A DNA stretch of 62,980 nt from an uncultured bacterium (GCA_903838985.1 CAIMAO010000014.1:1-62980), one strand, 5' to 3'; shown: positions 3,740 through 62,980, numbered from the stretch's first letter. The notes: generated by a model not told the origin, from the letters alone. Numbers and translations are program-made.

Positions 3740-3777
3740 ATATCAAAAAATTCCCCACTTGGGGAATTTTTTGATAT
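3740..3777 (+). terminator. Perfect 17-bp hairpin (atatcaaaaaattcccc/actt/ggggaattttttgatat) after the surface-protein gene; its 3' arm overlaps the pilB -10 box
   Basis: Exact inverted repeat read from the sequence, with a T-rich 3' arm. TATAAT at 3775-3780 lies 6 nt before the pilB ATG. Confidence 0.7.
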
Positions 3778-11899: not shown

Positions 11900-13654
11900 A
11901 TGCAGCAGTATTCTGAATTATTGAGATCAATTTTAGAAAAAAGAGGTATAAAAACAGCAGAAGAAGCTGAGGTTTTTTTGAATCCAGATTATAAAAGGGA
12001 TTTACATAGTCCATTTGAAATGAGAGACATGGAGAAAGCTTGTGTGAAGCTTTTTGAAGTTATAGAAAATAAAGAAAAAATAATCATTTATGCTGATTAT
12101 GATTGTGATGGTATTCCTGGCGCTGTTATTTTAGAAGATTTGTTTAAAAAAATAGGATACAAAAATTATGAGATTTATATTCCAGGTAGAAATTCTGAAG
12201 GCTATGGTTTAAATCTTCCTGCTATAAAACAGTTTGCAGAAAAAAATGTAAAACTTTTGATAACTATTGATTTGGGTATTACAGCTGTTTCAGAAGTTGC
12301 ACAAGCAGAAGTAAATGGGATTGATGTGATTATTACAGATCATCACTTACCAAAACAAAAAACTCAGGATATAAAAAATTCTCCCGCCTTCGCCCTCGGA
12401 GACAAAGAGACAGGGGACCCACGGCTCCTTAATTTTTCATATCCTGAGTTTTTTTTGCCTAAAGCTTATGCCATTTTAAATCCCAAAGTAGATAATTATT
12501 CTGAAAAAATGTTGTGTGGAGCGGGTGTCGTTTTTAAATTCGTTCAGGGTTTTATAGAAAAATATGGAGAATTTTATAAAATAAATGAAGGATGGGAAAA
12601 ATGGCTTTTGGATATGGCTGGACTGGCTACTCTTTCTGACCTAGTTCCACTTTTGGGAGAAAATAGGGCAATAGCATATTTTGGTATGACAGTTTTACGG
12701 AAATCTCCACGTCCTGGTTTGCAAAAACTTTTATCAAAAATGAATATTGATCAAAAATATTTATCTGAAGATGACGTTGGTTTTATGATAACACCTAGGT
12801 TGAATGCGGCTTCTAGAATGGATGATCCAATGCGAGCCTATGAACTTTTAGCTACAAATGACGAGGTTGAAGCAGGAGTATTGGCTACTCATTTGTCAAA
12901 GATAAATGATGATAGGAAAACAATGGTGACTTCTATTATGCGAGAAGTACATAAAAAATTTGAAAAAAATGGAGATAGAGAAATGAAAGAAGTGATAGTA
13001 ATAGGTAATCCAAATTGGCGTGTGGGTGTATTAGGACTCGTAGCAAATAAAATTTCAGATGAGCACAAAAAGCCTGTTTTTGTCTGGGGTAAAGATGAGA
13101 ATGATTTTATAAAAGGTTCTTGCAGGAGTGATGGTTCTGTTTCTTTGGTTGAACTTATGACAGAAACAAGTGAATTTTTTATGGAATTTGGTGGTCATGA
13201 ATTTGCTGGTGGTTTTACTGTCCATAATGACAAAATTCATTTTTTGGAAGATGCTCTTTCTAACTCTTTTAAAAAAGTAAAACGTGAAAAAACAGAAAGT
13301 GAAATAGTCTTTGATATCAAAACCGACTTAAGTGCAGTTAATATGAAAAATTGGCGTGAAATAGAAAAAATGGCTCCATTTGGTTTAGCCAATCCAAAAC
13401 CTATTTTTCTTTTTGAAAATGTAAAAATAGAAAATATTAAAAAATTTGGTAAAAATGGATCAGGTGAACATTTAGAAATTAGCTTTTCAGATATAAATAA
13501 AAATAAAGCAAAGGCTATTTCTTTTTTTTCAAATAATGACTCATTTAAGACTACATTGAATGAAGGTTTGAATGTTAATCTTCTTGCCACTTTTGATTTA
13601 TCTAGATTTAGGGGTAGGGTAGAGCTAAGATTAAGAATAATTGATATACTTTAA
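11900..13654 (+). CDS. recJ: Single-stranded-DNA-specific exonuclease RecJ (with in-frame repeat-element insertion)
   Basis: DHH-family motifs DYDCDG, DLGIT and ITDHH. DHHA1 motif GGHEFAGG. ~31 extra residues lie between the two LP motifs that flank DHH. Confidence 0.85.
   Translation: MQQYSELLRSILEKRGIKTAEEAEVFLNPDYKRDLHSPFEMRDMEKACVKLFEVIENKEKIIIYADYDCDGIPGAVILEDLFKKIGYKNYEIYIPGRNSEGYGLNLPAIKQFAEKNVKLLITIDLGITAVSEVAQAEVNGIDVIITDHHLPKQKTQDIKNSPAFALGDKETGDPRLLNFSYPEFFLPKAYAILNPKVDNYSEKMLCGAGVVFKFVQGFIEKYGEFYKINEGWEKWLLDMAGLATLSDLVPLLGENRAIAYFGMTVLRKSPRPGLQKLLSKMNIDQKYLSEDDVGFMITPRLNAASRMDDPMRAYELLATNDEVEAGVLATHLSKINDDRKTMVTSIMREVHKKFEKNGDREMKEVIVIGNPNWRVGVLGLVANKISDEHKKPVFVWGKDENDFIKGSCRSDGSVSLVELMTETSEFFMEFGGHEFAGGFTVHNDKIHFLEDALSNSFKKVKREKTESEIVFDIKTDLSAVNMKNWREIEKMAPFGLANPKPIFLFENVKIENIKKFGKNGSGEHLEISFSDINKNKAKAISFFSNNDSFKTTLNEGLNVNLLATFDLSRFRGRVELRLRIIDIL
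12357..12454 (+). repeat. Nested-hairpin element inside recJ: 24-bp A/T-rich inverted repeat enclosing a 50-nt G/C-rich core
   Basis: Left arm aaaaaactcaggatataaaaaatt (12357-12380) is complementary to right arm aatttttcatatcctgagtttttt (12431-12454), with 1 mismatch. Core: ctcccgccttcgccctcggagacaaagagacaggggacccacggctcctt. Confidence 0.85.
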
Positions 13655-41927: not shown

Positions 41928-41980
41928 TATATTAACAGATTAATTTATAAAATCAAATTTTTTACCAAAACCAAAGAAAC

Positions 41981-42088
41981 AACTCCAGAAACAATATTTT
42001 TGTCGGTACGGATTTTTTGAAGCTTAAAAAATCCTGAAATTGGCTCGCCGTCGCTCGCCAAACCCCTTAAAAATATTTTTCTGGAGTT
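41981..42088 (+). repeat. Family-A nested-hairpin element, copy A1 (between recA and efp)
   Basis: 20-bp outer stem with a bulged C (aactccagaaaCaatattttt / aaaaatatttttctggagtt) around a 67-nt core. The first 40 nt of the core are identical to copy A2. Confidence 0.9.
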
Positions 42089-42093
42089 ATTTT

Positions 42094-43131
42094 TTATTCT
42101 TCTGCAAACTTTTTACGAATTTCTTTTAAGATTTGATCTGCTATTTTGTGGTTTTCTTTTAAGAAAGTTCTTGTGGAATCATAACCCACACCTAATTTTA
42201 CTTTTTCAGCTTTTTCTCCACTTGGCATATAGAAATATGAATTACCAGTTTTTTCTACTATTTTAAATTTCTCTCCTAATGCAATAATTTCACCTTCTTT
42301 GGAAATACCTTCATTATAAATAATATCAAACTCTGTTTGTTTAAATGGCGCAGCAACTTTGTTTTTTACTACCTTCACACGAGTACGACTTCCGACGATA
42401 TCTTCTCCTTTTTTAATTTGTGCAATTTTTCTGATATCAAGTCTTACAGAAGTGTAAAATTTTAATGCTTTACCTCCTGGAGTAGTTTCAGGATTGCCAA
42501 ACATAACTCCGATTTGCATTCTTATTTGGTTTATAAAAATAACTACAGTTTTAGATCTAGCTACAATGGCTGTGAGTTTGCGAAGTGCTTGAGACATAAG
42601 TCTTGCTTGTTTACCTATATGATAAGCACCCATATCTCCCTCTATTTCATCCTTTGGTGTTAGTGCAGCGACAGAGTCTACGACAATGACATCAATTTTT
42701 CCTGTTCGTACTAGACTCTCAACTATCTCGAGTGCTTGTTCTCCTGTATCTGGTTGAGAGATAAGCAAGTCATCTATATTTACTCCAAGTTTTTTTGTAT
42801 AATCTGGGTCCATTGCATGTTCAGCATCTATATATGCACAGATTCCTCCGAGTTTTTGTGCTTCAGCACATATATGCAACGATAGGGTAGTCTTGCCTGA
42901 AGATTCTGGTCCAAATATTTCAATTATTCTTCCACGTGGTATTCCTCCGACACCGAGAGCCATATCAAGACCCAAAGAACCTGTAGGTATAGTATTTATA
43001 TCTACTTTTGGTGAATCACCAAGTTTCATAATTGAGCCTTCTCCAAATTTTGCTTGTATTGCTTTTAATGTATCATCAAGCATTGATACACCTACTGACT
43101 TATCTTCTTTTTTTTCTTTTTTCTTTACCAT
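42094..43131 (-). CDS. recA: Recombinase RecA
   Basis: GPESSGKTT Walker [10 protein letters not shown] Walker B, and loop motifs. Start set at [12 protein letters not shown] (ATG 43131). The longer track ORF runs into repeat element B1. Confidence 0.95.
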
Positions 43132-43141
43132 AAATTTTTTT

Positions 43142-43273
43142 GAATTATAAAACTTGTTGCAGGTGTAATTTTTGAGAGATATTGCGCAGGCTGTCGAGCC
43201 GAGCATAGCAAATTTTCAGTAGAAAATTATGCGTGTCTATCAAAAACTATACCAAAAAAAAGTTTTGTAATTC
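43142..43273 (-). repeat. Family-B nested-hairpin element, copy B1 (upstream of recA)
   Basis: Outer arms gaattataaaactt / aagttttgtaattc. The core 43181-43236 in reverse complement matches B2: acacgcata, then a 7-bp hairpin, then tgctatgctcggctcgNcagcctgcgcaat. Confidence 0.8.
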
Positions 43274-43638: not shown

Positions 43639-43727
43639 TGCGGGGTTTACTTTTTTGAGCTGGTCTGGTTGAGCCCTTAGGACTTAATGAGGGCGACCCG
43701 AGGACCCGAAAAAAAGTAAACCCCGCA
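43639..43727 (+). repeat. Family-C nested-hairpin element, copy C1 (immediately downstream of ftsK)
   Basis: 18-bp perfect outer stem tgcggggtttactttttt / aaaaaagtaaaccccgca. Core: gagctggtctggttgagc, a variable hairpin, then gcgacccgaggacccga. Confidence 0.9.
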
Positions 43728-43737
43728 GGAAATTTCA

Positions 43738-45984
43738 TTACATTACATTTTCTCCATTTTCATCATGTGAAATTTTTTCTAAAACTTCTCTTGGTTTAGC
43801 ACCATCACCAGCACTTATTACTCCACGTTCTTCCAATTTATCCATAAGTCGTGCGGCACGAGCATATCCTAGTTTTAATTTTCTTTGCAGATATGAGGTA
43901 GATGCCTTTCCAGCTTCTATCACACATTGTCTAGCTTCTTCATACATTTCATCTTCATCCTCGTCTTCATCTGCAAGGCTACTTTCAAAAATACTTTTAT
44001 CAGCTGATATAGAACCCGTAGTCAAAGATATTTCATCGGTTATTTCATCTTTGTAAGTGTCGACTAAATATTTTACAACTTTTTTGACTTCTGTTTCTGA
44101 AATAAATGCACTTTGTAAACGTTCAGGTTGAGCTTCACCAGAAGAATAGAGCATATCTCCAGCACCTAGTAGTTTTTCTGCTCCACCGGCATCTAAAATA
44201 GTACGGGAGTCTATTTGTGAAGAAACCTTTAAGGCTACACGGGCAGGGATGTTTGCTTTAATGAGTCCAGTAATGACATTTACTTCTGGACGTTGGGTGG
44301 AAAGTATCAAATGTATGCCGACAGCTCTAGACATTTGTGCGAGTCGTACGATGGCTGACTCTAATTCTCTTGGATAAGCAGTCATAATATCTGCCAATTC
44401 GTCTATTATTATCACTATGTATGGCAAACGATCTGCATCTACTTCTGTTTGAGTGCCATCAGCACCTATTTTCATCTTCTTTGGGTTTTTGCCAAATATA
44501 TTTGTGTGATAAGACTCAATATCTCTTACAGATTCTGCTTCTAATATATCGTAACGGCGATCCATTTCTTTTGCTGCCCATTTCAAAGCGAGTATTGTTT
44601 TCTTTGCTTCAGTTATGACTGGGGTAAGTAAATGTGGAATGTTGTTGTAGAGTGTCAGCTCTACACGTTTTGGATCTATTAATATTAGTTTCAAATCATC
44701 TGGCCCATTTCTGTAGAGCAGGGAAGCTATTATAGAGTGTATTGTCACAGATTTTCCAGAACCAGTCGTTCCTGCTACTAATGCATGTGGCATTTTTGCT
44801 AAGTTTCCAAAAACAGCCTTTCCAGATATTCCACGACCGAGTGCTATTGTGAGAGGTTTTTGAGAATTTTGGAATTTAGCATCTGAAAGTAATGTAGCGA
44901 GTCCAACAATAGATTTTGATTTGTTTGGTATTTCTATACCTACGAGTGATTTGCCTGGTATAGGTGCTTCTATACGTATTGGATGTGCTGCCAAAGAAAG
45001 TGCGAGGTCATTTTGTAAACCTACGATGCGTGAGAGTTTTACTCCTTCAGCTGGTTTTAATGCATAACGTGTGACAGTTGGTCCGACGGTTATTTCATCC
45101 ATCTCTACTTCAATACCGAAGTTTGCAAGTGTGCGTTTAATAATATTTGCATTTGCTTTTATATCTCCTGTATTTGGTTTTCCTTTATCTTCTTCAAGTA
45201 ATGAAAGTGGGGGAGGGACATAGGTAGAGATCAGTCCACTTTTTCTTTTTTTGATAGGTATATCTTCCTCTTCTTCATTGGTTGCTTGTCCTGAGCTTGT
45301 CGAAGGATTTTTATTTACCATGCCGAGGACTTTTTTAACTTTTTCTGCAGAGGAACTTTTTTCTTCCTCTTCTGTAATAGATTTTTGTACTTCTTTTATT
45401 TCATTTTCATTTAAAGTGTTTTTAGTGTTTTCTATTTGTATTTTTTTACCAGTAAAGAAACTCCAAATTTTAACAAAAAATGGAGCTAGGTTTGGCTTCG
45501 CGTCAAACATTATTATTATTGAGATTATTAAAATTGCTCCGAGGAAAATTATACTTGCATAAACATCAAAAAGAGATACGAGTGGCTTAGATAAAATTTT
45601 CCCTAGTAGCCCCCCAGAATGGTTGAGTGATGCGACGTCTACCATGCCAAGTCCTGATAGTAAAAACATTGTTGCACTTATTGCACGTGTCCATCCTAAG
45701 TTTGGAGTTTCTGATTTTATAAAAGAAGATCCAAGCAGTAAAAAAAGAATTGGAAGTAATATATACCCGACACCGAGCATATAGTCTAAAAATTCATAAA
45801 TATTTCTTCCAGCCATACCTCCCATATCAAACATCGACATCAAAAGAAAGATAGTTAGAACAAAAAAAAGAACTGCCCATATTCCGTGTTTCGTTTCAGT
45901 TTTCAAACCAGTTGCGAAAGATAAATTTTTACCAAAAGTTTCTTTATTATTTTTTTGTTTTTTCTGTTTTTCTTTTTTTGCCAT
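43738..45984 (-). CDS. ftsK: DNA translocase FtsK/SpoIIIE
   Basis: N-terminal TM segments, low-complexity linker, motor with GTTGSGKSV and IIIDELAD, and a C-terminal gamma wHTH (YLQRKLKLGYARAARLMD). Confidence 0.9.
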   Translation of the reverse strand: MAKKEKQKKQKNNKETFGKNLSFATGLKTETKHGIWAVLFFVLTIFLLMSMFDMGGMAGRNIYEFLDYMLGVGYILLPILFLLLGSSFIKSETPNLGWTRAISATMFLLSGLGMVDVASLNHSGGLLGKILSKPLVSLFDVYASIIFLGAILIISIIIMFDAKPNLAPFFVKIWSFFTGKKIQIENTKNTLNENEIKEVQKSITEEEEKSSSAEKVKKVLGMVNKNPSTSSGQATNEEEEDIPIKKRKSGLISTYVPPPLSLLEEDKGKPNTGDIKANANIIKRTLANFGIEVEMDEITVGPTVTRYALKPAEGVKLSRIVGLQNDLALSLAAHPIRIEAPIPGKSLVGIEIPNKSKSIVGLATLLSDAKFQNSQKPLTIALGRGISGKAVFGNLAKMPHALVAGTTGSGKSVTIHSIIASLLYRNGPDDLKLILIDPKRVELTLYNNIPHLLTPVITEAKKTILALKWAAKEMDRRYDILEAESVRDIESYHTNIFGKNPKKMKIGADGTQTEVDADRLPYIVIIIDELADIMTAYPRELESAIVRLAQMSRAVGIHLILSTQRPEVNVITGLIKANIPARVALKVSSQIDSRTILDAGGAEKLLGAGDMLYSSGEAQPERLQSAFISETEVKKVVKYLVDTYKDEITDEISLTTGSISADKSIFESSLADEDEDEDEMYEEARQCVIEAGKASTSYLQRKLKLGYARAARLMDKLEERGVISAGDGAKPREVLEKISHDENGENVM
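45288..45307 (-). repeat. G/C-rich 20-mer in the ftsK linker, identical to the argS copy
   Basis: The reverse complement of gtcctgagcttgtcgaagga is tccttcgacaagctcaggac. Translated here in a different frame (PSTSSGQAT). Confidence 0.9.
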
Positions 45985-46042
45985 ACTGCTATTTTATCAC
46001 AAAACGTGGATCTAAAAAAGAAAGGAAATAATTTCTTCCTTT

Positions 46043-46141
46043 GCGTAATGTTATGTTTTACGAGCTGGTCTGGTTGAGCTCGCTCTTTTAAAAAATTTTG
46101 TGCGAGCGACCCGAGGACCCGAGTAAAATATAAGATTATGC
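46043..46141 (+). repeat. Family-C nested-hairpin element, copy C2 (upstream of ftsK)
   Basis: 19-bp outer stem gcgtaatgttatgttttac / gtaaaatataagattatgc (two G-U pairs, one mismatch). Same 18-nt and 17-nt core blocks as C1, with a different inner hairpin (gctcgc...gcgagc). Confidence 0.85.
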
Positions 46142-46149
46142 AAAAATAT

Positions 46150-46258
46150 TTCCGCAAGGTTATTAAAAAAAATAGTCCGAATATTTTTTTACTAAAAAAT
46201 TTCTCAAGACTCGCGCCGTCGCGCTCCGTAGCCTATTTTTTTCAACAACCTTGCGGAA
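46150..46258 (+). repeat. Diverged family-A-like nested-hairpin element, copy A3
   Basis: 26-bp outer stem ttccgcaaggttattaaaaaaaatag / ctatttttttcaacaaccttgcggaa; both mismatches become G-U on the minus strand. The core contains ctcgcgccgtcgcgctc (compare A2 ctcgcaccgtcgcgctc). Confidence 0.75.
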
Positions 46259-46289
46259 AAAATGTCCTTAATGATTTCCTTTAAAGGAC

Positions 46290-47305: not shown

Positions 47306-47409
47306 AGCACCAAATTACTAATTTAAAAACACGCATATTTGCTTGCTAGCAAATTGCTATGCTCGGCTCGTCAGCCTGCGCAATGTTTTAAAATCAGTAA
47401 TTTGGTGCT
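47306..47409 (+). repeat. Family-B nested-hairpin element, copy B2
   Basis: 19-bp outer stem agcaccaaattactaattt / aaatcagtaatttggtgct (1 mismatch). Core blocks 47329-47337 and 47355-47384 are shared with B1. The inner hairpin differs but is still paired. Confidence 0.85.
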
Positions 47410-47614: not shown

Positions 47615-47710
47615 ATAATATATTGCTCTATCTTTGAGCTATATATTATAATGTTTATGTGAATGCAAATCGCACATTATTGAATGTGTTTTGCATAAGT
47701 AAATGCATTT

Positions 47711-47785
47711 GTTTTCGTTCACGATTACATCGAAATAATCGTGAACGAAAACAACCAATCAAAGGTCGCAAATTTTTGATTGGTT
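47711..47785 (+). promoter_or_regulatory. Two adjacent perfect hairpins (17 bp and 11 bp) in the untranslated region
   Basis: gttttcgttcacgatta-catcgaaa-taatcgtgaacgaaaac is followed directly by aaccaatcaaa-ggtcgcaaatt-tttgattggtt. No T-run follows. Confidence 0.6.
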
Positions 47786-51174: not shown

Positions 51175-51197
51175 TTTGAATTGTTAAGGATATAAGA

Positions 51198-51285
51198 GTT
51201 TCTCAAAACTTAAAATTGAAAGTCTGATTGACTAAATCAATTCCAAAAACCCCGATCGCAATTTAAAGCGACGGGGTTTTTGCGT
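51198..51285 (+). repeat. 88-nt cassette-boundary repeat, copy R1 (palindrome plus intrinsic terminator)
   Basis: gtttctcaaaacttaaaattgaaagtctgattgactaaatcaattccaaaaaccccgatcgcaatttaaagcgacggggtttttgcgt. Starts 23 nt after the surface-protein stop. Confidence 0.9.
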
Positions 51286-51320
51286 TGGTTGGTTAAAATT
51301 TTTATGTTAAAATTATAATA

Positions 51321-51927
51321 ATGAAAAATAAACGTTACGCTTTTATAGACGTTCAAAATACTGAAAGCACCACTCGTCAACTTCTTGGTTTTTTAATTGA
51401 TTGGAAAAAGCTTTTTTTATTTCTTAAAAATGAATGGAAATGTGAAAAAGTTTTTTTTCTATTCTGGAATAGATGTTGGAGATATAGAAACTGAAAAAGA
51501 ATTTGAGAATCTTTCCAATGGAGGTTGTATTGTTTGTTCTAAAATTGTTTTTTCTTATAAAAACAAAAATAAAAACATTCAAACAAAATGTCCAAGTTGT
51601 GGTAATGAATTTATTGAAGTAGTTGATATGGGATATAACAGAAAATCAAATTGTGATGTTGATTTGACTGTTGATGCGATGGAAAACGCTAGTCCAAACA
51701 CTGAGTTTTATCTTTTTTCAGGTGATGGAGATTTTGAATATTTAATAAAAAAAGTGATAGAAAAAGGTGTATTTGTTCATATAGTATCAAGTGCGAAAAA
51801 AATAAAAAATGGACCCAATTATTCAACTTCTAGATTTTCCACAAAATTACGTAAACTTACTGAAGAAAAAGGTAAGCCCGTTGATTTTCTTAATATAGAT
51901 AATTTGAAGTTTAAAATTAAAAAATAG
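51321..51927 (+). pseudogene. NYN/LabA-like domain protein with Zn-ribbon insert, interrupted by a +1 frameshift in a T8 tract
   Basis: Frame 1 (51321-51458) encodes MKNKRYAFIDVQN...CEKVFF. The track ORF continues as FYSGIDVG...CDVDLTVDA...LFSGDGDFEYL in the +1 frame. The frames join at ttttttt(t) 51451-51458. Confidence 0.6.
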
Positions 51928-51934
51928 GCAAGCA

Positions 51935-51962
51935 AAAAGGCCGCGAAGCGCGACCTTTTTTA
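51935..51962 (+). terminator. G/C-rich hairpin terminator after the NYN gene
   Basis: aaaaggccgcg-aag-cgcgacctttttt (one internal mismatch) followed by a T-run. Confidence 0.7.
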
Positions 51963-52013
51963 ATGACAATTAAAGTATAACAAAACGTATTTTCTTGTCA
52001 AGCATTTTGTAGA

Positions 52014-52101
52014 GTTTCTCAAAACTTAAAATTGAAAACCTGATTGACTCAATCAATTCCAAAAACCCCGATCGCAATTTAAAGCGACGGGGTTTTTGCA
52101 T
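52014..52101 (+). repeat. 88-nt cassette-boundary repeat, copy R2
   Basis: Near-identical to R1, R3 and R4 (a few substitutions by manual alignment). Confidence 0.9.
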
Positions 52102-52129
52102 TTTTATCTCACCCCATAATTGATAGGGC

Positions 52130-52156
52130 AGCCCCCTACACCAGGTGTAGGGGGCT
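52130..52156. repeat. REP-like palindrome P1 (agccccctacacc-a-ggtgtagggggct)
   Basis: Perfect 13-bp arms. Lies 18 nt upstream of the RayT-like ATG. Contains GTAG/CTAC. Confidence 0.9.
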
Positions 52157-52173
52157 ATGTTATAATAATAAAT

Positions 52174-52875
52174 ATGACATACAGAAAAGTTTCTTTATCG
52201 TCTGGAGAATATTTTCATATTTTTAATAGGGGGAACAGTAAACAGAAAATTTTTCTTGATGAAAAAGACAGAGAGCGTTTTGTAAAACTTTTGTATTTAT
52301 CTAACTCGAAGAAGAGCGTTAATTTCCGTGATGATATTGTAAGTCAGAAAATTGACGCTTTTGATTTTGATAGGGGAGAAACTCTTGTTTCGATTGGTGC
52401 TTGGGTCTTGATGCCAAATCATTTTCATATATATTTAACGTCCCCTACACCAGGTGTAGGGGACGAAGAGATGAAGAGAAACGAGGAAAATAAATCTAAT
52501 ATTACATTATTTGTACATAAACTTTGTATGAGTTATGTAAAATATTTTAATAAAAAATATGACAGGACTGGTGCGCTTTTTGAAGGACCTTTTAAATCTG
52601 TTCATATAGAAAATGATGGCCAAGCGAAATATCTTTTCTCGTATATACACTTAAATCCTTTGAAACTTATTGATCCAAATTGGAAAGAAAATATTAATAA
52701 AAATATTGATATCACTTTAAAATATTTAGATAATTACAATTGGAGTAGTTATAATGATTATTATGGAATTTTAAGAAAAGAAAATAAAATTTTACAACGA
52801 AAAGATTTTCCAGATTATTTTTCTGATATTAAAAGTTTTAAATCAGAAATTTTTTCTTGGTTAAAATATGAGTAG
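52174..52875 (+). CDS. IS200-like Y1 (HUH) transposase of the RayT/COG1943 type
   Basis: YFHIFNRGN, WVLMPNHFHIYL (HUH), KYFNKKYDRTGALFEGPFKS, YLFSYIHLNPLK (catalytic Tyr region), and NWSSYNDY. Start set at MTYRKVSL. Confidence 0.7.
   Translation: MTYRKVSLSSGEYFHIFNRGNSKQKIFLDEKDRERFVKLLYLSNSKKSVNFRDDIVSQKIDAFDFDRGETLVSIGAWVLMPNHFHIYLTSPTPGVGDEEMKRNEENKSNITLFVHKLCMSYVKYFNKKYDRTGALFEGPFKSVHIENDGQAKYLFSYIHLNPLKLIDPNWKENINKNIDITLKYLDNYNWSSYNDYYGILRKENKILQRKDFPDYFSDIKSFKSEIFSWLKYE
52441..52463. repeat. REP-like palindrome P2, in-frame inside the transposase gene
   Basis: tcccctacacc-a-ggtgtagggga is translated as SPTPGVG directly after the HUH motif. Confidence 0.9.
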
Positions 52876-52883
52876 TTTAATTT

Positions 52884-52908
52884 TTCCCCTACACCAGGTG
52901 TAGGGGAA
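52884..52908. repeat. REP-like palindrome P3
   Basis: ttcccctacacc-a-ggtgtaggggaa, 9 nt after the transposase stop. Confidence 0.9.
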
Positions 52909-52963
52909 AGTCGTTTTGTTTTGCAATTTGCGGTTTTTATTTTGCTTGTGGTATTATAAAAGT

Positions 52964-53224
52964 ATGAAAAAAGTTGTGAAAAAAACATCTGATAAATTTC
53001 TTACGGAAACTAAGTTTGAAAAGAGTATGCAATCTGTTGCAAAATCTTTTGCAGACCAGGCTGATGTTATGCAAATGATGCTTAAAGAAATCAAGACAAT
53101 TCATCAAGATAATAGATATTTTAAGGAAAATATTGTTAGTTTAAACAGTGATGGTTTGTCTTATGATAAGAAAATTGAAAATCTAACTATTAGAATAGAA
53201 AAACTAGAGCTTAAAGTAAGTTAG
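52964..53224 (+). CDS. Small coiled-coil protein, function unknown
   Basis: 86-aa ORF starting MKKVVKKTSDKF, 6 nt after an extended -10 (TGgTATTAT). The longer track ORF start lies in the promoter module. Confidence 0.35.
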   Translation: MKKVVKKTSDKFLTETKFEKSMQSVAKSFADQADVMQMMLKEIKTIHQDNRYFKENIVSLNSDGLSYDKKIENLTIRIEKLELKVS

Positions 53225-53233
53225 TTAACTAAA

Positions 53234-53321
53234 GTTTCTCAAAACTTAAAATTGAAAGTCTGATTGACTCAATCAATTCCAAAAACCCCGATCGCAATTT
53301 AAAGCGACGGGGTTTTTGCGT
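53234..53321 (+). repeat. 88-nt cassette-boundary repeat, copy R3
   Basis: Starts 9 nt after the preceding stop codon. Palindrome tgattga-c-tcaatca plus terminator ccccgatcgc-aatttaaa-gcgacggggttttt. Confidence 0.9.
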
Positions 53322-53351
53322 TTCCTCCCGCTCCATATCGATATTGATAGT

Positions 53352-53382
53352 GCAGCCCCCTACACCAGGTGTAGGGGGCTGC
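53352..53382. repeat. REP-like palindrome P4 (perfect 15-bp arms)
   Basis: gcagccccctacacc-a-ggtgtagggggctgc. Preceded by attgatagtg, as P1 is by attgataggg. Confidence 0.9.
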
Positions 53383-53433
53383 TTTGTCCTGAAGTTTGCA
53401 ATTTTTATTTTGCTTGTGGTATGCTTAAGGTAT

Positions 53434-53721
53434 ATGAAAAAGGCAACATTTCAAATTGGTTTACCAATAACAATATTTAAAGAAGGGAAAAGCTATGTAG
53501 CATATAGTCCGGCTCTTGATCTTTCTACTTCTGCCTCTACATATTTAAAGGCAAGAAGTCGTTTTTCAGAAGTAACCAAAATATTTTTTGAAGAACTTAC
53601 AGAAATGGGCACCTTAGAATCTGTGCTTGCTAGTTTGGGTTGGCAAAAATTAAAAACAAATTGGCATCCACCAGTTGTTGTTTCAAACTATACACAATCT
53701 ATAAATTTAACAAATGCCTAA
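53434..53721 (+). CDS. hicB: HicB-like antitoxin (UPF0150-type N-domain)
   Basis: IFKEGKSYVAYSPALDLSTSASTYLKA pattern. Overlaps the downstream hicA-like gene by 8 nt. Start set at MKKATFQIG. Confidence 0.6.
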   Translation: MKKATFQIGLPITIFKEGKSYVAYSPALDLSTSASTYLKARSRFSEVTKIFFEELTEMGTLESVLASLGWQKLKTNWHPPVVVSNYTQSINLTNA

Positions 53722-53944
53722 AAAGCAAAATATAACTAATAAACAGTTTCAAAAATTTCTGGTATATTTAGGTTGTACTTTAAAACGTTCTCATGGAGAC
53801 CACTTTGTTTATATTCGTTCAGGTTTAATTCGTCCAATTATTATACCGAAAGATAGTCCCTTGCCACAGTTTATTATTAGAAACAATTTAAGATTGCTTG
53901 GTTTAACATGGGAAGAATTTTTTGATATTTTAAATAAATTGTAA
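53714..53944 (+). CDS. hicA: HicA-like mRNA interferase toxin
   Basis: 76 aa. KFLVYLGCTLKRSHGDHFVYI...IIIPKDSPLPQFIIRNNLRLLGLTWEEF fits the HicA/YcfA pattern. Confidence 0.65.
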   Translation: MPKKQNITNKQFQKFLVYLGCTLKRSHGDHFVYIRSGLIRPIIIPKDSPLPQFIIRNNLRLLGLTWEEFFDILNKL

Positions 53945-53960
53945 TCACAGCTTATTATTT

Positions 53961-54182
53961 ATGAATACAAAATATGATAAAATTGCAGATGCACTTTATG
54001 TTAAATTTAAGCAAGGTAAAATTGCCAAGACTCTTCGTCTTGAGAATCATCTAATAGTTGATTTAGATAATAAGTCAAATATTTTGGGAGTAGAACTTCT
54101 CAACGCTAAATCTCAACTTGCACCAGCATTTATAAAACAATTTTTTGGAAAAGATATCGTTAAACAAATTGCTTTTGCTTAA
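53961..54182 (+). CDS. DUF2283-family small protein
   Basis: YDKIADALYVKF...IVDLDNKSNILGVELLNA matches the DUF2283 pattern as I recall it. Confidence 0.6.
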   Translation: MNTKYDKIADALYVKFKQGKIAKTLRLENHLIVDLDNKSNILGVELLNAKSQLAPAFIKQFFGKDIVKQIAFA

Positions 54183-54187
54183 GTATA

Positions 54188-54276
54188 GTTTCTCAAAACT
54201 CAAAATTGAAAGCCTGATTGACTCAATCAATTCCAAAAACCCCGATCGCAATTTAAAGCGATGGGGTTTTTTGCGT
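54188..54276 (+). repeat. 88-nt cassette-boundary repeat, copy R4
   Basis: Starts 5 nt after the DUF2283 stop. Four differences from R3, including one extra T. Confidence 0.9.
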
Positions 54277-54302
54277 TTTTATCTGTATGATATAATAAAA
54301 TT

Positions 54303-55948: not shown

Positions 55949-58900
55949 ATGAAGAATAAGATATTGTTTATTTTTATTCTAATTTGTTTGTTTTCTATTT
56001 GCGTTAAGGTTTCAGCAAATGAAATATGTTCTCCAACAGGGTATAGTGTTGTTACGGTCAATGGTATATTTACTGATGAAAAGGGGGCGAAATATAATAA
56101 AAATCAATTATCTTATAAACTTGCGGCAACCTATAATAATGAACCGATAAACATTGATTATCTGTACAACCAAACCCACCTTCTCGGTGTTGGGGATTTG
56201 ATTGATGCTGTAAATCAAGGACTTTTTGACCAAAAATCTGATTATGATTTGGTGGAAATGATAAATGATGCAAGTCAAAAAGTTAAAACCCAAAAACTTT
56301 TACTCGTTTCTCATTCACAGGGTAATTTTTACGCAAATAATTTTTATGACAAAGTAGCAGATCAACAAGGTGGTGTTCCTTCTAAATCTATTGGAGTTTA
56401 TAGTGTTGCTTCTCCAGCAAATCGTGTTGCTGGCGGAGGAAAATATCTAACTTCAGATACAGATAAAGTCATAGCTTCTGTGGTGGGTCGTTTCATCAAA
56501 ATTTTACCACCAAATATTCATATACCTTTGCAAGAAGCCGATGGTAATGGGCATAGTTTTTCAGATGTTTATTTAAAATATCAAAGTGATAGGATTATTT
56601 CTGATATAAAATCTTCTCTTAATAATTTAAAAGAAAATGATGAACAAGAGGCAGATCAGCCTTGTATTTCTGCACCAGAATTGACAATAAATCATAAAAT
56701 ACAAGGTGTTTTATTGAATTCTGCAGATTTTGTAATAAACAATACAAAAAGTGCGACAGTGTATGCCGCAAATACTTTATATAATACGACGCTAGCTGTG
56801 GGTAATGTTGTGAAAGGTTTACTAGCCACAGCTGTAGAAAGTTTACCAAATACTAAAAGTGTGACTACGTTGCCTGTTGTTGTCCCAGAAAATAAAAATA
56901 CAAATGTTGCAAACCAAAATATTCCAAAAGAAACGACAAAAGTTGTTGATAAAAATATAATTAAAGAAACAAAAAATACTGAAACAACCAAGGTAGTAAA
57001 AGTTGCTGATGTTTCTCCAGTTTTAGACAAAAAAGATGTTTTGAGCAACGTCATAAAACCCGTTGTTTCTAATGTTGTTTCTTTTGGAGGCGGTGGAGGT
57101 GGGGGGAGTGTCGTCGTCGTTCAGCCAGAAGAAAAACCAGTAATAAAAGATGAAAAGAAAGATGATCCAGTAGTGCCACCACCAGTAGAACCTGTTCCAG
57201 ATGTCACTTCACCGGTCATTACTATTTTAGGGAATAACCCAGAAGTAGCAATTACAAATTCTGTTTATGTTGATGCTGGAGCTACTGCCCTCGATGCTGT
57301 AGATGGTGTGCGTGAGGTGGAGAGTACTGGCACTGTTGATACATCTAGAAGAGGAAGTTATATCATTATATATAAAGCTTCAGATAAGTCTGGAAATATT
57401 GCGACAGCTACTCGTACGGTGAATGTTGCAACTTATAAATATGTTCCTAAATATAAATTTGGCCTAGATAATGGTGATGGTAATTATTGGCAGAATTGGG
57501 CATTTAATGGATCAAATGTTTATGATTGGGCTGACAGTTATGTAGATAATTATTTACATGAACAATTTAAAATTCAAACTTATGCTGGAGGTTTTTGGTG
57601 TTCGCAATGTTTACAGCGTGGTGTTTTTAAACATAATCCTCAAGAAGGTTTTGAAAGATCAGATCTCTTAACTTCTGGTCTTGAAAATAATCCACAAAAT
57701 AATGAAATTGATATGATTTACAATGTTGTTATTCAATGGGATTCTGCTGGTTATACTTATAAAATTACAAATGGTGATAATGTTTATGCGACAGGACGCA
57801 CAGATGTTGCGAATTTAAATAAAGATATGTGGGTCGGTTGGGATGGTTCCTTTAATGATTTTAAGAATTTTCCTGCAGGAAATTGGACGGGTTCTTCTGG
57901 TTGGTACCCATTTGGTCTCACAGGCGGGGGAAGTATGATTTTGCAACCATTTCCAATTTATAAAGAGCCTACCTCTGCAAGTCCTTCACTTTCTCTTATA
58001 AATAAAGGTGTATATGCAGGAGTAGGTGTGACGCCGACATATGGTAGGACGAATTTAACAGCATTTAATTTTCAAGTAATTTATACAGATAAAAATAATA
58101 TTGCACCACAAAATGTAAAACTTCATGTTGTTAACACAGTTACAGGGTTTTCTTTTCCAGAAGTTTCGATGACAAAGATATCTCAGGGCGGGGATGTTTT
58201 AAGTGATGGAAATTTTGCAAACGGAGAAATATATACTGCAAATAATATTTTGTATGACACAGGAATTTATAAATATTATTTTACCGCAAATGATGGTTCT
58301 GGAAATTTGGTAGAAATGCCTTACAACGAAAGATTAAATTTTGGTGTTGTGCCTTCCACTTACACTTATATTCCTCAATATTCTTTTGGGACAGAAAATG
58401 GAGATGGAAATAATTGGCAAGTTTGGTCTTTTAATGGATCAAATGTCTATGATTGGTCAGACACGTATGTTGATAATTATTTGCATGAACAATTTAAACT
58501 TCAAGATTATCCTGGGGGATTTTGGTGCTCGCAATGTTTACAAAGAGGTATATTTAATCACGATCCACAAAAAGGTTTTGAAACTTATGATCTTCTCACG
58601 TCTAATCTGGAACACAATCCACAGAATAATATGATTGCCGTTACTTATGATGTATCTTTGCAATGGGACGCAACTGGTTATACATATACTATTTCTCATG
58701 ATGCTACTGTTGATGCCACTGGCCATACAGATGTTGCAAACGTGAATGAAAATATGTGGGTTGGCTGGGATGGATCGTTTAATAATTTTAAAACTTTTCC
58801 TTCTGGACGTTGGCAAGGTGCTTCGGGCTGGTATCCGTTTGGTTATACAGGTGGGGATAGTATGATTTTGAAACCTTATCCAGTTTATGTTTATTCTGGC

Positions 58901-59581
58901 CCCATTCTTAGTAAACAAAAGTCTGTTACTTCTTTTAATTTTATGAATTTAGTTCCAGAAGTTGACGGAGTTCTTGATGAAAATAATCATACTATTTCTA
59001 TGACTGTTTCATTTGGGACAGATGTGAAAACTCTTGTGCCGACTATTGGAATTTCTCTAAGTGCGTCTGTTGTTCCAAATAATAATGTTGTTCAAGATTT
59101 TACTAATCCTGTCACTTACACCGTTACAGCAGAAAATGGTTCTATACAAAATTATATTGTGACAGTAAATGTTGCTCCAGATCCAAACCCAGTACCTGCA
59201 CCAGTTCCTGATCCCGTTCCAGCTCCAGATGTTACTCCGCCTTCTATTACAAGTTATACACTTAATGGTGTTGCTGATAATGTGACAATAAATCCAGCTA
59301 AAACACCTGTTTCTGTTGTTTTAAATTCTAGTGAAAATGTAAATTGGATGTCTATAAAAATTGAAAATCAGAATGATATAGGAATTTACAAAACATTTCT
59401 GTCTGGAAATGGTTGTGTTGATGGTACGAATACTTGCAGTAAAACTTGGGATGGGGCTTTGACTAAGGGAGATATTCAAAATGGTGCTTATCATATTAAA
59501 GTTCACATGAAAGATCCAGCAAATAATGAATTTAATGATTATATTCTCCCTTATGTAATAAATGTAGACACTTCTATTTAA
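55949..59581 (+). CDS. Giant secreted protein (1210 aa): lipase-like alpha/beta-hydrolase head, Pro-rich linkers, Ig-like segments, duplicated ~190-aa Trp/Cys-rich module
   Basis: Signal peptide. LLLVSHSQGNFY nucleophile elbow. PVITILGNNPE...DAVDGV Ig-like segment. Tandem modules begin near nt 57431 and 58358 (NGDGN.WQ.W.FNGSNVYDW.D.YVDNYLHEQFK...GGFWCSQCLQRG). Confidence 0.5.
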   Translation: MKNKILFIFILICLFSICVKVSANEICSPTGYSVVTVNGIFTDEKGAKYNKNQLSYKLAATYNNEPINIDYLYNQTHLLGVGDLIDAVNQGLFDQKSDYDLVEMINDASQKVKTQKLLLVSHSQGNFYANNFYDKVADQQGGVPSKSIGVYSVASPANRVAGGGKYLTSDTDKVIASVVGRFIKILPPNIHIPLQEADGNGHSFSDVYLKYQSDRIISDIKSSLNNLKENDEQEADQPCISAPELTINHKIQGVLLNSADFVINNTKSATVYAANTLYNTTLAVGNVVKGLLATAVESLPNTKSVTTLPVVVPENKNTNVANQNIPKETTKVVDKNIIKETKNTETTKVVKVADVSPVLDKKDVLSNVIKPVVSNVVSFGGGGGGGSVVVVQPEEKPVIKDEKKDDPVVPPPVEPVPDVTSPVITILGNNPEVAITNSVYVDAGATALDAVDGVREVESTGTVDTSRRGSYIIIYKASDKSGNIATATRTVNVATYKYVPKYKFGLDNGDGNYWQNWAFNGSNVYDWADSYVDNYLHEQFKIQTYAGGFWCSQCLQRGVFKHNPQEGFERSDLLTSGLENNPQNNEIDMIYNVVIQWDSAGYTYKITNGDNVYATGRTDVANLNKDMWVGWDGSFNDFKNFPAGNWTGSSGWYPFGLTGGGSMILQPFPIYKEPTSASPSLSLINKGVYAGVGVTPTYGRTNLTAFNFQVIYTDKNNIAPQNVKLHVVNTVTGFSFPEVSMTKISQGGDVLSDGNFANGEIYTANNILYDTGIYKYYFTANDGSGNLVEMPYNERLNFGVVPSTYTYIPQYSFGTENGDGNNWQVWSFNGSNVYDWSDTYVDNYLHEQFKLQDYPGGFWCSQCLQRGIFNHDPQKGFETYDLLTSNLEHNPQNNMIAVTYDVSLQWDATGYTYTISHDATVDATGHTDVANVNENMWVGWDGSFNNFKTFPSGRWQGASGWYPFGYTGGDSMILKPYPVYVYSGPILSKQKSVTSFNFMNLVPEVDGVLDENNHTISMTVSFGTDVKTLVPTIGISLSASVVPNNNVVQDFTNPVTYTVTAENGSIQNYIVTVNVAPDPNPVPAPVPDPVPAPDVTPPSITSYTLNGVADNVTINPAKTPVSVVLNSSENVNWMSIKIENQNDIGIYKTFLSGNGCVDGTNTCSKTWDGALTKGDIQNGAYHIKVHMKDPANNEFNDYILPYVINVDTSI

Positions 59582-60860: not shown

Positions 60861-60871
60861 TTAACAAATAT

Positions 60872-60983
60872 AAAAAACCAAGAACAAGATTTTTGTCGGT
60901 ACGGATTTTTTGAAGCTTAAAAAATCCTGAAATTCTCGCACCGTCGCGCTCGAAACCCCTTAAAAATCTTTTCTTGGTTTTTT
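60872..60983 (+). repeat. Family-A nested-hairpin element, copy A2, acting as the rplL terminator
   Basis: 22-bp outer stem with a bulged C (aaaaaaccaagaaCaagattttt / aaaaatcttttcttggtttttt) followed by a T-run. 67-nt core; the first 40 nt are identical to A1. Confidence 0.9.
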
Positions 60984-61020
60984 GTTGTTTTTTGTAAAAA
61001 AGGTGGTATTATGTACGCAT

Positions 61021-62847: not shown

Positions 62848-62980
62848 TAACAGGAAATTTAAGGGCGTATGGTGGATGCCTTGACTTTAAGAGGCGATGA
62901 AGGACGTGGCGTTGCTGCGATAAGCTTCGGGGAGGTGCTTAGCTACCTTTGATCCGGAGATTTCCGAATGGGGAAACCCT
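62848..62980 (+). rRNA. rrl: 23S ribosomal RNA, 5' end (partial, runs off the window)
   Basis: gggcgtatggtggatgccttg...aggcgatgaaggacgtg...gataagcttcgggga...gatccggagatttccgaatggggaaaccc matches the universally conserved 23S domain I start. The exact 5' end is approximate. Confidence 0.85.

Follow-up and report, generated by a model that had tools for sequence, protein, structure and literature searches.

How does an AT-rich palindrome come to lie within the reading frame of recJ, just behind the codons of the catalytic motif? The question is raised by a stretch of 62,980 nt from an uncultured bacterium (GCA_903838985.1, CAIMAO010000014.1:1-62980; hereafter the window), whose recJ gene contains a nested hairpin with an AT-rich stem and a GC-rich core. 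The names of its homologues place the host in Candidatus Nomurabacteria/Paceibacterota, within the Candidate Phyla Radiation (CPR, Patescibacteria), whose genomes are regarded as extremely streamlined. The recJ insert probably belongs to a palindromic repeat family of Nomurabacteria/Paceibacteria genomes that is non-autonomous and is here called family A. The parts of the locus are as follows.

11900..13654, plus strand: recJ open reading frame (ORF), intact, 584 aa, host of the element (ORF call, domains, structure match)
12338..12346, plus strand: codons of the catalytic DHH motif, directly 5' of the insert (sequence, homologue alignments)
12354..12380, plus strand: AT-rich 5' arm of the hairpin; inner AAAAAATT family-wide, outer part copy-specific
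12381..12430, plus strand: GC-rich core of 50 nt, family A subfamily v3 (CTCCCGCC...GGCTCCTT)
12387..12420, plus strand: diagnostic 34-nt core pattern CCTTCGCCNTCGGAG-N9-CAGGGNACCC, with at least 120 matching metagenome stretches
12431..12457, plus strand: 3' arm of the hairpin (inverted repeat, stem alignment)
12455..12484, plus strand: LPKAYAILNP codons, where RecJ homology resumes (structure and orthologue alignments)

The insert in recJ and its orthologues

The initial annotation, made from the DNA itself, had described a GC-rich core of 50 nt flanked by a 24-nt inverted repeat with a single mismatch. An inverted-repeat search returned exactly these arms (12357-12380 / 12431-12454; 96% complementary, 50 nt between them), and pairing in the recJ element reaches ~27 positions (12354-12380 / 12431-12457). 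Folded as RNA, the 118-nt element stretch reached -34 kcal/mol (z = -4.9), a stability equalled by 0/200 shuffles, and as DNA -19 kcal/mol (z = -4.0). Exact-core and pattern scans of the 63-kb window found no family-A copy besides that in recJ. At the gathering score of Rfam 15, the large-subunit (LSU) rRNA was the sole hit in the window, with no family for the element, and a permissive scan of 12300-12510 gave generic hairpin hits only (≤28 bits, far under the cut-offs). ARAGORN reported no tRNA-like gene.

The ORF encodes the domains DHH, DHHA1 and RecJ_OB, retains all conserved RecJ motifs and matches solved RecJ structures. In the alignment with Staphylococcus aureus RecJ (8y30), query residues 149 and 186 correspond to chain residues 169 and 175, respectively, which leaves 36 window residues vs 5 in 8y30, hence ~31 extra residues, beginning 2 residues past the DHH motif. 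The ~31-residue insert annotated after DHH was thereby borne out, as it was against the empty orthologues of the clade (5 residues there). The peptide quoted for it was correct, and the frame described as open through the palindrome is that of the single intact ORF. An identical RecJ protein is known from 17 contigs, which rules out an assembly artefact as the source of the insert. An AlphaFold2 model built with 58 homologues (mean predicted local distance difference test (pLDDT) 83; predicted template modelling (pTM) score 0.82) had 8y30 as its best structural match (TM 0.84); insert residues 153-164 and 168-184 had pLDDT <50, the rest being confident. Of the surface loop that modelling was meant to reveal, what emerged is a low-confidence loop in a confident RecJ, consistent with a flexible one. 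Judged from this model, the insert would most simply be a tolerated flexible loop near the active site.

We aligned 120 close RecJ proteins, most of which have an empty site reading DHH-LPH(A/E/K)(I/V/T)-LPRAYAILNP. The same ~31-aa insert (NSPAFALGD..GDPRLLN) is present in 12/120, the arm-encoded parts alone in 3/120 (L056 (P0008), P0009 and P0011) and other ~30-aa inserts in two, whilst many carry 8-10 extra residues at the site. The insert is thus present in some orthologues and absent from most, with a clean site, rather than being a homologous segment of all RecJ proteins, the case in which the initial annotation would have called the hairpin coincidental. At the DNA level, six recJ loci (L001, L054, L055, L059, L060 and L073) share the same core and differ in their arms, and in L056 the arms are joined directly as a simple hairpin. 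The L058 site has different arms around a core that is the reverse complement of the window element at 43639-43727, a member of another family (B), and L057 has a third core. The same, absent and differing cores at this position mark the recJ site as a hotspot and the cores as repeat families. Insert-bearing RecJ proteins were scattered in a neighbour-joining (NJ) tree built without the insert, a star-like, poorly resolved tree that is suggestive only.

These states could also reflect a nested origin in two steps, in which an AT-rich hairpin settled in recJ first and mobile GC-rich cores (A, B, F) entered its loop later. Such an order would explain old, diverged arms around young, near-identical cores. 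It draws on the three arms-only forms, on the family-B and third cores at the same site in L058 and L057, on arms that diverge at about the rate of the flanks whilst the core does not, on the scatter of insert-bearing proteins in the tree and on two core-less perfect palindromes in the window (3740-3777 and 47709-47754). We nevertheless consider it unlikely. Empty intergenic sites lack any hairpin, which points to arms and core arriving together; the L058 arms have no detectable homology to family-A-bearing arms; an in-frame 51-nt core deletion explains the arms-only forms equally well; and the tree is poorly resolved.

Family A in spacers and in open frames

The diagnostic core pattern occurs in at least 120 public metagenome stretches, with 2-3 copies in several, and has 142 matches in the collected related loci; a scan of viral contigs (IMG/VR) gave no match. 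Units with clean boundaries measure ~92-102 nt. Their GC-rich core of ~50 nt is nearly invariant and is followed outwards by an inner stem that is short and conserved (AAAAAATT / AATTTTTT) and by an AT-rich outer stem that has a different sequence in every copy. The 3-bp helix adjacent to the core covaries (GAG/CTC, GCG/CGC, GCA/UGC, CCG/CGG). The commonest subfamily, v1, has the consensus AAAAAATTTCTGAGCCTTCGCCCTCGGAGTCATAAGGACAGGGRACCCACGACTCTTAAAATTTTT. Different subfamilies are found side by side in a single contig, which gives no sign of homogenisation by gene conversion. Against this background, a lineage-specific RecJ loop with coincidentally palindromic DNA is hardly credible. The variability of the site within the clade, with 8-10 extra residues in many orthologues, would suit such a loop, but the 50-nt core recurs at >120 unrelated loci, its third codon positions are conserved and changes in its arms compensated (see below), and the fold has a z-score of -4.9.

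Placement was determined for 106 unique copies away from contig ends, a copy counting as in-gene where the frame is open for ≥150 nt on both sides. By this definition 83/106 copies are intergenic and 23/106 lie in open frames, in seven different genes. Intergenic copies sit a median of ~4 nt from the upstream stop and from the downstream ATG. For the 69 with called genes on both sides, the orientations were (+,+) in 51, (+,-) in 10, (-,+) in 6 and (-,-) in 2. Together, the orientation counts and the short distances indicate that the units fill operon spacers in sense orientation. In the few loci where the genes around the element run against the majority strand of the locus, its orientation is that of the neighbouring genes.

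The in-gene hosts are recJ, a CCA-adding/HD-domain-like protein (six orthologues), leucyl-tRNA synthetase (LeuRS; a single site, read in two different frames), MnmA, an FAD-oxidase-like protein, the alpha subunit of phenylalanyl-tRNA synthetase (PheRS-alpha) and an RsmH-like methyltransferase, whose copy is in reverse orientation. The CCA/HD, LeuRS, FAD-oxidase and RsmH names come from reading conserved motifs in the translations, and the MnmA and PheRS-alpha copies are extra residues relative to solved homologues. All 23 in-gene copies are in-frame and stop-free. Subfamily v1, with TGA/TAA stops in 2/3 forward frames, was intergenic in 60 cases vs 2 in ORFs, the latter confined to its one open forward frame. 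The stop-free v2 was divided 22 vs 11, and v3, the recJ type, 0 vs 9. The frame reading NS(G/P)AFALGD is used by ~6/8 independent gene insertions, and v2 and v3 are open in 4-5 frames.

This distribution bears on the idea that the element is removed before the mature protein, whether excised in the manner of an intron or skipped by translational bypassing, for which T4 gene 60 and the mitochondrial 'byp' are precedents. Some yeast mitochondria do bypass GC-rich inserts in AT-rich genes, and the computed fold predicts a stable hairpin in the mRNA. A removed element would, however, escape frame and stop constraints, so removal is very unlikely given that 23/23 in-gene copies are in-frame and stop-free, that the in-gene subfamilies are stop-free and that the arms-only and short variants keep the frame too. 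No ribozyme or intron family matched, and 31 aa is too small for an intein. We suggest that family A spread as a whole hairpin and was retained only in spacers and permissive protein loops, in-gene copies surviving where a loop tolerates them whilst copies with stops or frameshifts would have been purged by selection. The recJ insert would then be translated as a flexible surface loop.

Two further copies are recorded as side observations. In L084 (7760-8010), a family-A unit is tandemly duplicated with the start of the downstream gene, and the 5' arm of the second unit overlaps ATGATAAATAATTATG. In L081 (minus strand, 346 nt from the reverse-complement start), a truncated copy comprising the 5' half only lies in the RsmH-like gene, near the site of the full copy of L061 and in the opposite orientation.

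Gain of whole units, conserved cores and self-matched arms

Flank-based searches identified filled and empty orthologous sites. The closest pair is L149/L140, with flanks that are 94-96% identical; a 7-nt stop-ATG spacer makes up the empty site, and the filled one holds the whole hairpin, outer arms included. One spacer has an element with unrelated outer arms in three species and is empty in a fourth. As the empty intergenic sites have no hairpin, the arms were not pre-existing target hairpins, at least there. The proposal of the initial annotation, a mobile or templated element able to land in coding DNA, is supported by the presence and absence of the insert at a clean site in recJ orthologues, by the at least 120 stretches, by the at least six other genes, by the gain or loss of whole units and by the low-confidence loop of the RecJ model. 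Orthologous spacers occur in L082 and L100, and in L180, L087, L126 and L098; L098 is empty, and the others hold the same core within unrelated yet internally complementary arms.

Analysis of target-site duplication found no direct repeat in 79/115 copies and 1 nt in 26, figures that are weak because the RNAfold-derived boundaries over-extended stems and made boundary calling unreliable; at the filled/empty pairs no target duplication was visible. Across the 1.9 Mb of collected loci, the core halves lie 24-27 nt apart (25 nt in 143/146 pairings), the exceptions being two neighbouring copies that were paired by chance at a distance of 1624 nt and a single truncated copy. No long parent with split core halves was found in these loci, whole genomes not having been searched.

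To measure conservation in recJ, we used loci found by protein homology, which involves no ascertainment by the core pattern. Third-codon-position identity was 0.76-1.0 in the core vs 0.42-0.68 in the 300-nt flanks, whilst arm identity (0.56-0.96) was like that of the flanks. Synonymous sites of recJ are near saturation while orthologous copies keep the core. Both the retention of third positions and the reading of the LeuRS site in two frames indicate a constraint on the core nucleotides and not on the peptide. The initial annotation, which had looked to the encoded loop, is corrected on this point: the conserved part is the core DNA. Covariation within the core was not demonstrable because the core hardly varies.

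The arms behave differently. Outer arms of different copies are 35% identical (chance level), only the inner 8-16 nt being common, and each pairs with its own partner (mean duplex -8.3 vs -4.5 kcal/mol, P = 3.5e-24). Among the six recJ copies, 12/27 stem pairs have changes on both sides, 85% of cells are Watson-Crick and 1/24 of the non-Watson-Crick stem cells is G-T. Family-wide, the arms show no RNA strand asymmetry (of 3135 pairs, G-U in 166 on the plus and 241 on the minus strand). Complementarity kept at the DNA level fits these data better than an RNA stem evolving via wobble pairs. Template-switch correction of quasi-palindromes is an established mutational mechanism, and the arm complementarity may act on DNA in this way or as a hairpin or cruciform.

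A core that stays constant between drifting arms also invites the view that it is a host-functional motif, that is, a sequence-specific signal under purifying selection at each locus, with the hairpin as a presentation scaffold. It would act either in the sense transcript, where it would bind a protein or mark a processing point between cistrons, or in DNA, as a recognition sequence such as an uptake-type signal, and in-gene copies would be tolerated by-products. Conservation of core third positions in recJ beside diverging arms and flanks, the orientation bias of 51 to 2 relative to flanking genes, the tracking of local genes in the few strand-discordant loci and the coexistence of subfamilies per contig without evident homogenisation all speak for such a signal. 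So does the location of ComEC and type IV pilus/type II secretion system (T2SS) genes, which adjoin recJ in these genomes. The lack of an Rfam match, of RNA strand asymmetry in the arms, of wobble intermediates in the recJ stem and of demonstrable core covariation speaks against it, as do the single family-A copy in 63 kb and the lack of the element in most recJ orthologues. We rate a host signal as possible rather than probable; it overlaps our explanation of family A as a mobile repeat and does not exclude it.

Under that explanation, the unit would move, or have moved, as a mobile element via a putative enzyme. The persistence of the core and the sense bias suggest that the core is recognised as sequence, perhaps by the mobilising machinery and/or a host factor on the sense strand. 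Several observations weigh against this account. No transposase, target-site duplication or longer same-ended parent was found in the collected loci, so mobility is argued from distribution alone. The core does not decay, though a purely selfish resident copy should. Plain insertion followed by filtering explains neither the preference for one frame nor the sense-orientation bias of 51 vs 2, and no tested explanation fits the same core with unrelated arms at orthologous spacers. Translation of the recJ insert, finally, is something we infer from the frame and stop pattern.

Under a further reading, the ~45-nt core would be a sense-strand signal selected across CPR (an RNA- or DNA-binding site, serving expression or uptake) and the hairpin its carrier, created by snap-back or template-switch insertion that gives self-matched arms. 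We think this improbable. If true, it would represent a class of mobile element without shared termini that writes new loops into essential proteins.

Known palindromic repeats and further repeats of the window

Judged by behaviour, the closest known analogue of family A is the Rickettsia palindromic element (RPE), described by Ogata et al. 2000 and 2002. A review lists about ten families of ~150 bp and, for R. conorii, 44 copies, of which almost half are fused in-frame to ORFs (PMC10969869). Both are short palindromic repeats of several families in a small AT-rich genome, placed between genes and, unusually often, in-frame within unrelated housekeeping genes. Both use mostly one reading frame with a recurrent peptide and have no associated transposase known. 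RPEs insert where the protein fold tolerates it, and with its low-confidence loop in the RecJ model family A may do likewise. In family A we found two features of an RPE-like class, namely a ~100-bp, many-copy palindromic unit and recurrent in-frame, stop-free insertion in unrelated genes. RPEs measure ~100-150 bp, whereas family A is shorter (~95-102 nt) and, unlike RPE, has a conserved GC-rich centre between copy-specific outer arms, resident cores conserved at synonymous positions and a strong intergenic sense bias. The likeness is one of behaviour, and because the host belongs to Ca. Nomurabacteria/Paceibacterota, in an unrelated phylum (CPR/Patescibacteria), family A is an RPE analogue and not a member.

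MITEs (miniature transposable elements with inverted repeats; Correia/NEMIS, ERIC, BOX, RUP, Nezha) are likewise small hairpin-forming repeats that are non-coding, reach high copy numbers and lie mostly between genes, although they are occasionally fused in-frame to ORFs. They have terminal inverted repeats common to copies, target-site duplications and a parent insertion sequence, whereas family-A termini differ per copy. At 35% arm identity we found no shared terminal inverted repeats, nor, in the collected loci, a same-ended parent element, and a conserved centre with copy-specific arms is the reverse of MITE termini. Repetitive extragenic palindromes and bacterial interspersed mosaic elements (REP/BIME), mobilised by REP-associated tyrosine transposases (RAYT; IS200/IS605-like Y1 transposases), are extragenic palindromes acting as DNA hairpins, to which the family-A stems without wobble are comparable. 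For REP/BIME an orientation bias is expected from single-strand DNA transposition, whereas the family-A bias tracks genes in the few informative loci. REPs are also 20-40 nt, strictly extragenic and usually clustered, in which family A differs. No RAYT gene turned up, although no search was aimed at RAYT.

Yeast mitochondrial GC clusters and 'byp' resemble family A as GC-rich mobile inserts of very AT-rich genomes that also enter protein-coding genes. They are organellar and without a long AT-rich closing stem, and byp is skipped by the ribosome, whereas family A always keeps the frame. DNA uptake sequences (Neisseria DUS, Haemophilus USS) resemble family A in that they are conserved across species at the nucleotide level, lie after genes (often as hairpins) and, in tolerated frames, in ORFs, and are enriched in genome-maintenance genes. 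They are 9-12 nt long, occur ~1 per kb and function in either orientation, against a family-A core of ~45 nt and ~1 copy per 3-60 kb. Our literature searches found nothing linking CPR genomes with palindromic repeats or RPE.

On this evidence, ~100-nt hairpin repeats occupy many CPR intergenic spacers, and loops of ~30 residues would have been written into RecJ, three tRNA-related enzymes, two aminoacyl-tRNA synthetases and other core proteins. Family A would be a second, independent case of a "protein-coding palindrome" beside Rickettsia, in an unrelated reduced-genome lineage, with filled, empty and arms-only states plentiful for study. As copies lie at contig ends, the family matters for annotation and assembly, and some insertions in CPR proteins that are lineage-specific may be due to it. 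The combination of a conserved core with arms that are nonetheless self-matched in each copy is a mechanistic puzzle.

The window contains further elements, as follows.

41974..42095, no strand assigned: family C element, downstream of recA
43140..43251 (approximate), minus strand: second family E element, upstream of recA
43639..43727, minus strand: family B element (TCGGGTCCTCGG...CCAGACCAGCTC), intergenic
46030..46153 (approximate), minus strand: second family B element, with a different inner hairpin and conserved flanks
46149..46259, no strand assigned: family D element
47306..47409, no strand assigned: family E element
60863..60992, no strand assigned: family C element, directly after the rplL (L7/L12) stop codon

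The initial annotation had ascribed one architecture to the recJ hairpin and the elements at 42-47 kb and 60.9 kb. The long AT-rich closing stem and GC-rich branched interior are indeed common to them, but the sequence families differ. Families B-E have z-scores of -3.8 to -6.8, and related genomes contain them too, frequently at the ends of contigs. The element at ~43140-43251 overlaps an ORF, probably because recA was called with too early a start. We rejected the inverted repeat at 45842-45976 as an element, since it consists of low-complexity A/T runs in an FtsK-like N-terminus. The perfect palindromes at 3740-3777 and 47709-47754 have 18-19 bp and 2-8-nt loops; that at 3740-3777 (ATATCAAAAAATTCCCCA/TGGGGAATTTTTTGATAT) resembles the family-A inner stem without a core, and the two may be core-less relatives or terminators.

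The neighbourhood of recJ varies among relatives. The divergent spacer between the HIT gene and recJ holds family-B or other hairpins in L005 (9881-9969), L009 (9876-9978), L013 (9908-9974) and L029 (6418-6519), family B lying just upstream of recJ in L005, L009 and L029; in the window this spacer is only 36 nt long. In L058 (13055-21752), comEC, downstream of recJ/rnhA, is shortened by an integrated block encoding a serine recombinase, two N6/N4 DNA methyltransferases and a Prim-Pol/AAA_25 protein. L054 (11798-12064) has a small GIY-YIG nuclease gene between recJ and rnhA, found in this relative only.

At the end of the window, 62849-62980 is the 5' end of a 23S rRNA; the 62.8 kb before it yielded no 16S rRNA or tRNA gene, which may mean that the rRNA genes are unlinked. 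Four 94-nt direct repeats, 816-1220 nt apart and each with a terminator-like hairpin end (AAAAACCCCGATCGC...GCGACGGGGTTTTT), lie at 51194-54277, an arrangement suggestive of small paralogous gene cassettes in series, and four CCCCTACACCAGGTGTAGGGG hairpins lie at 52119-53380. A 300-nt direct repeat with 76% identity (57431-57730 / 58358-58657) falls within the 1210-aa ORF at 55949-59581, whose protein shows the duplicated segment YKFGLDNGDGNYWQNW... / YSFGTENGDGNNWQVW...

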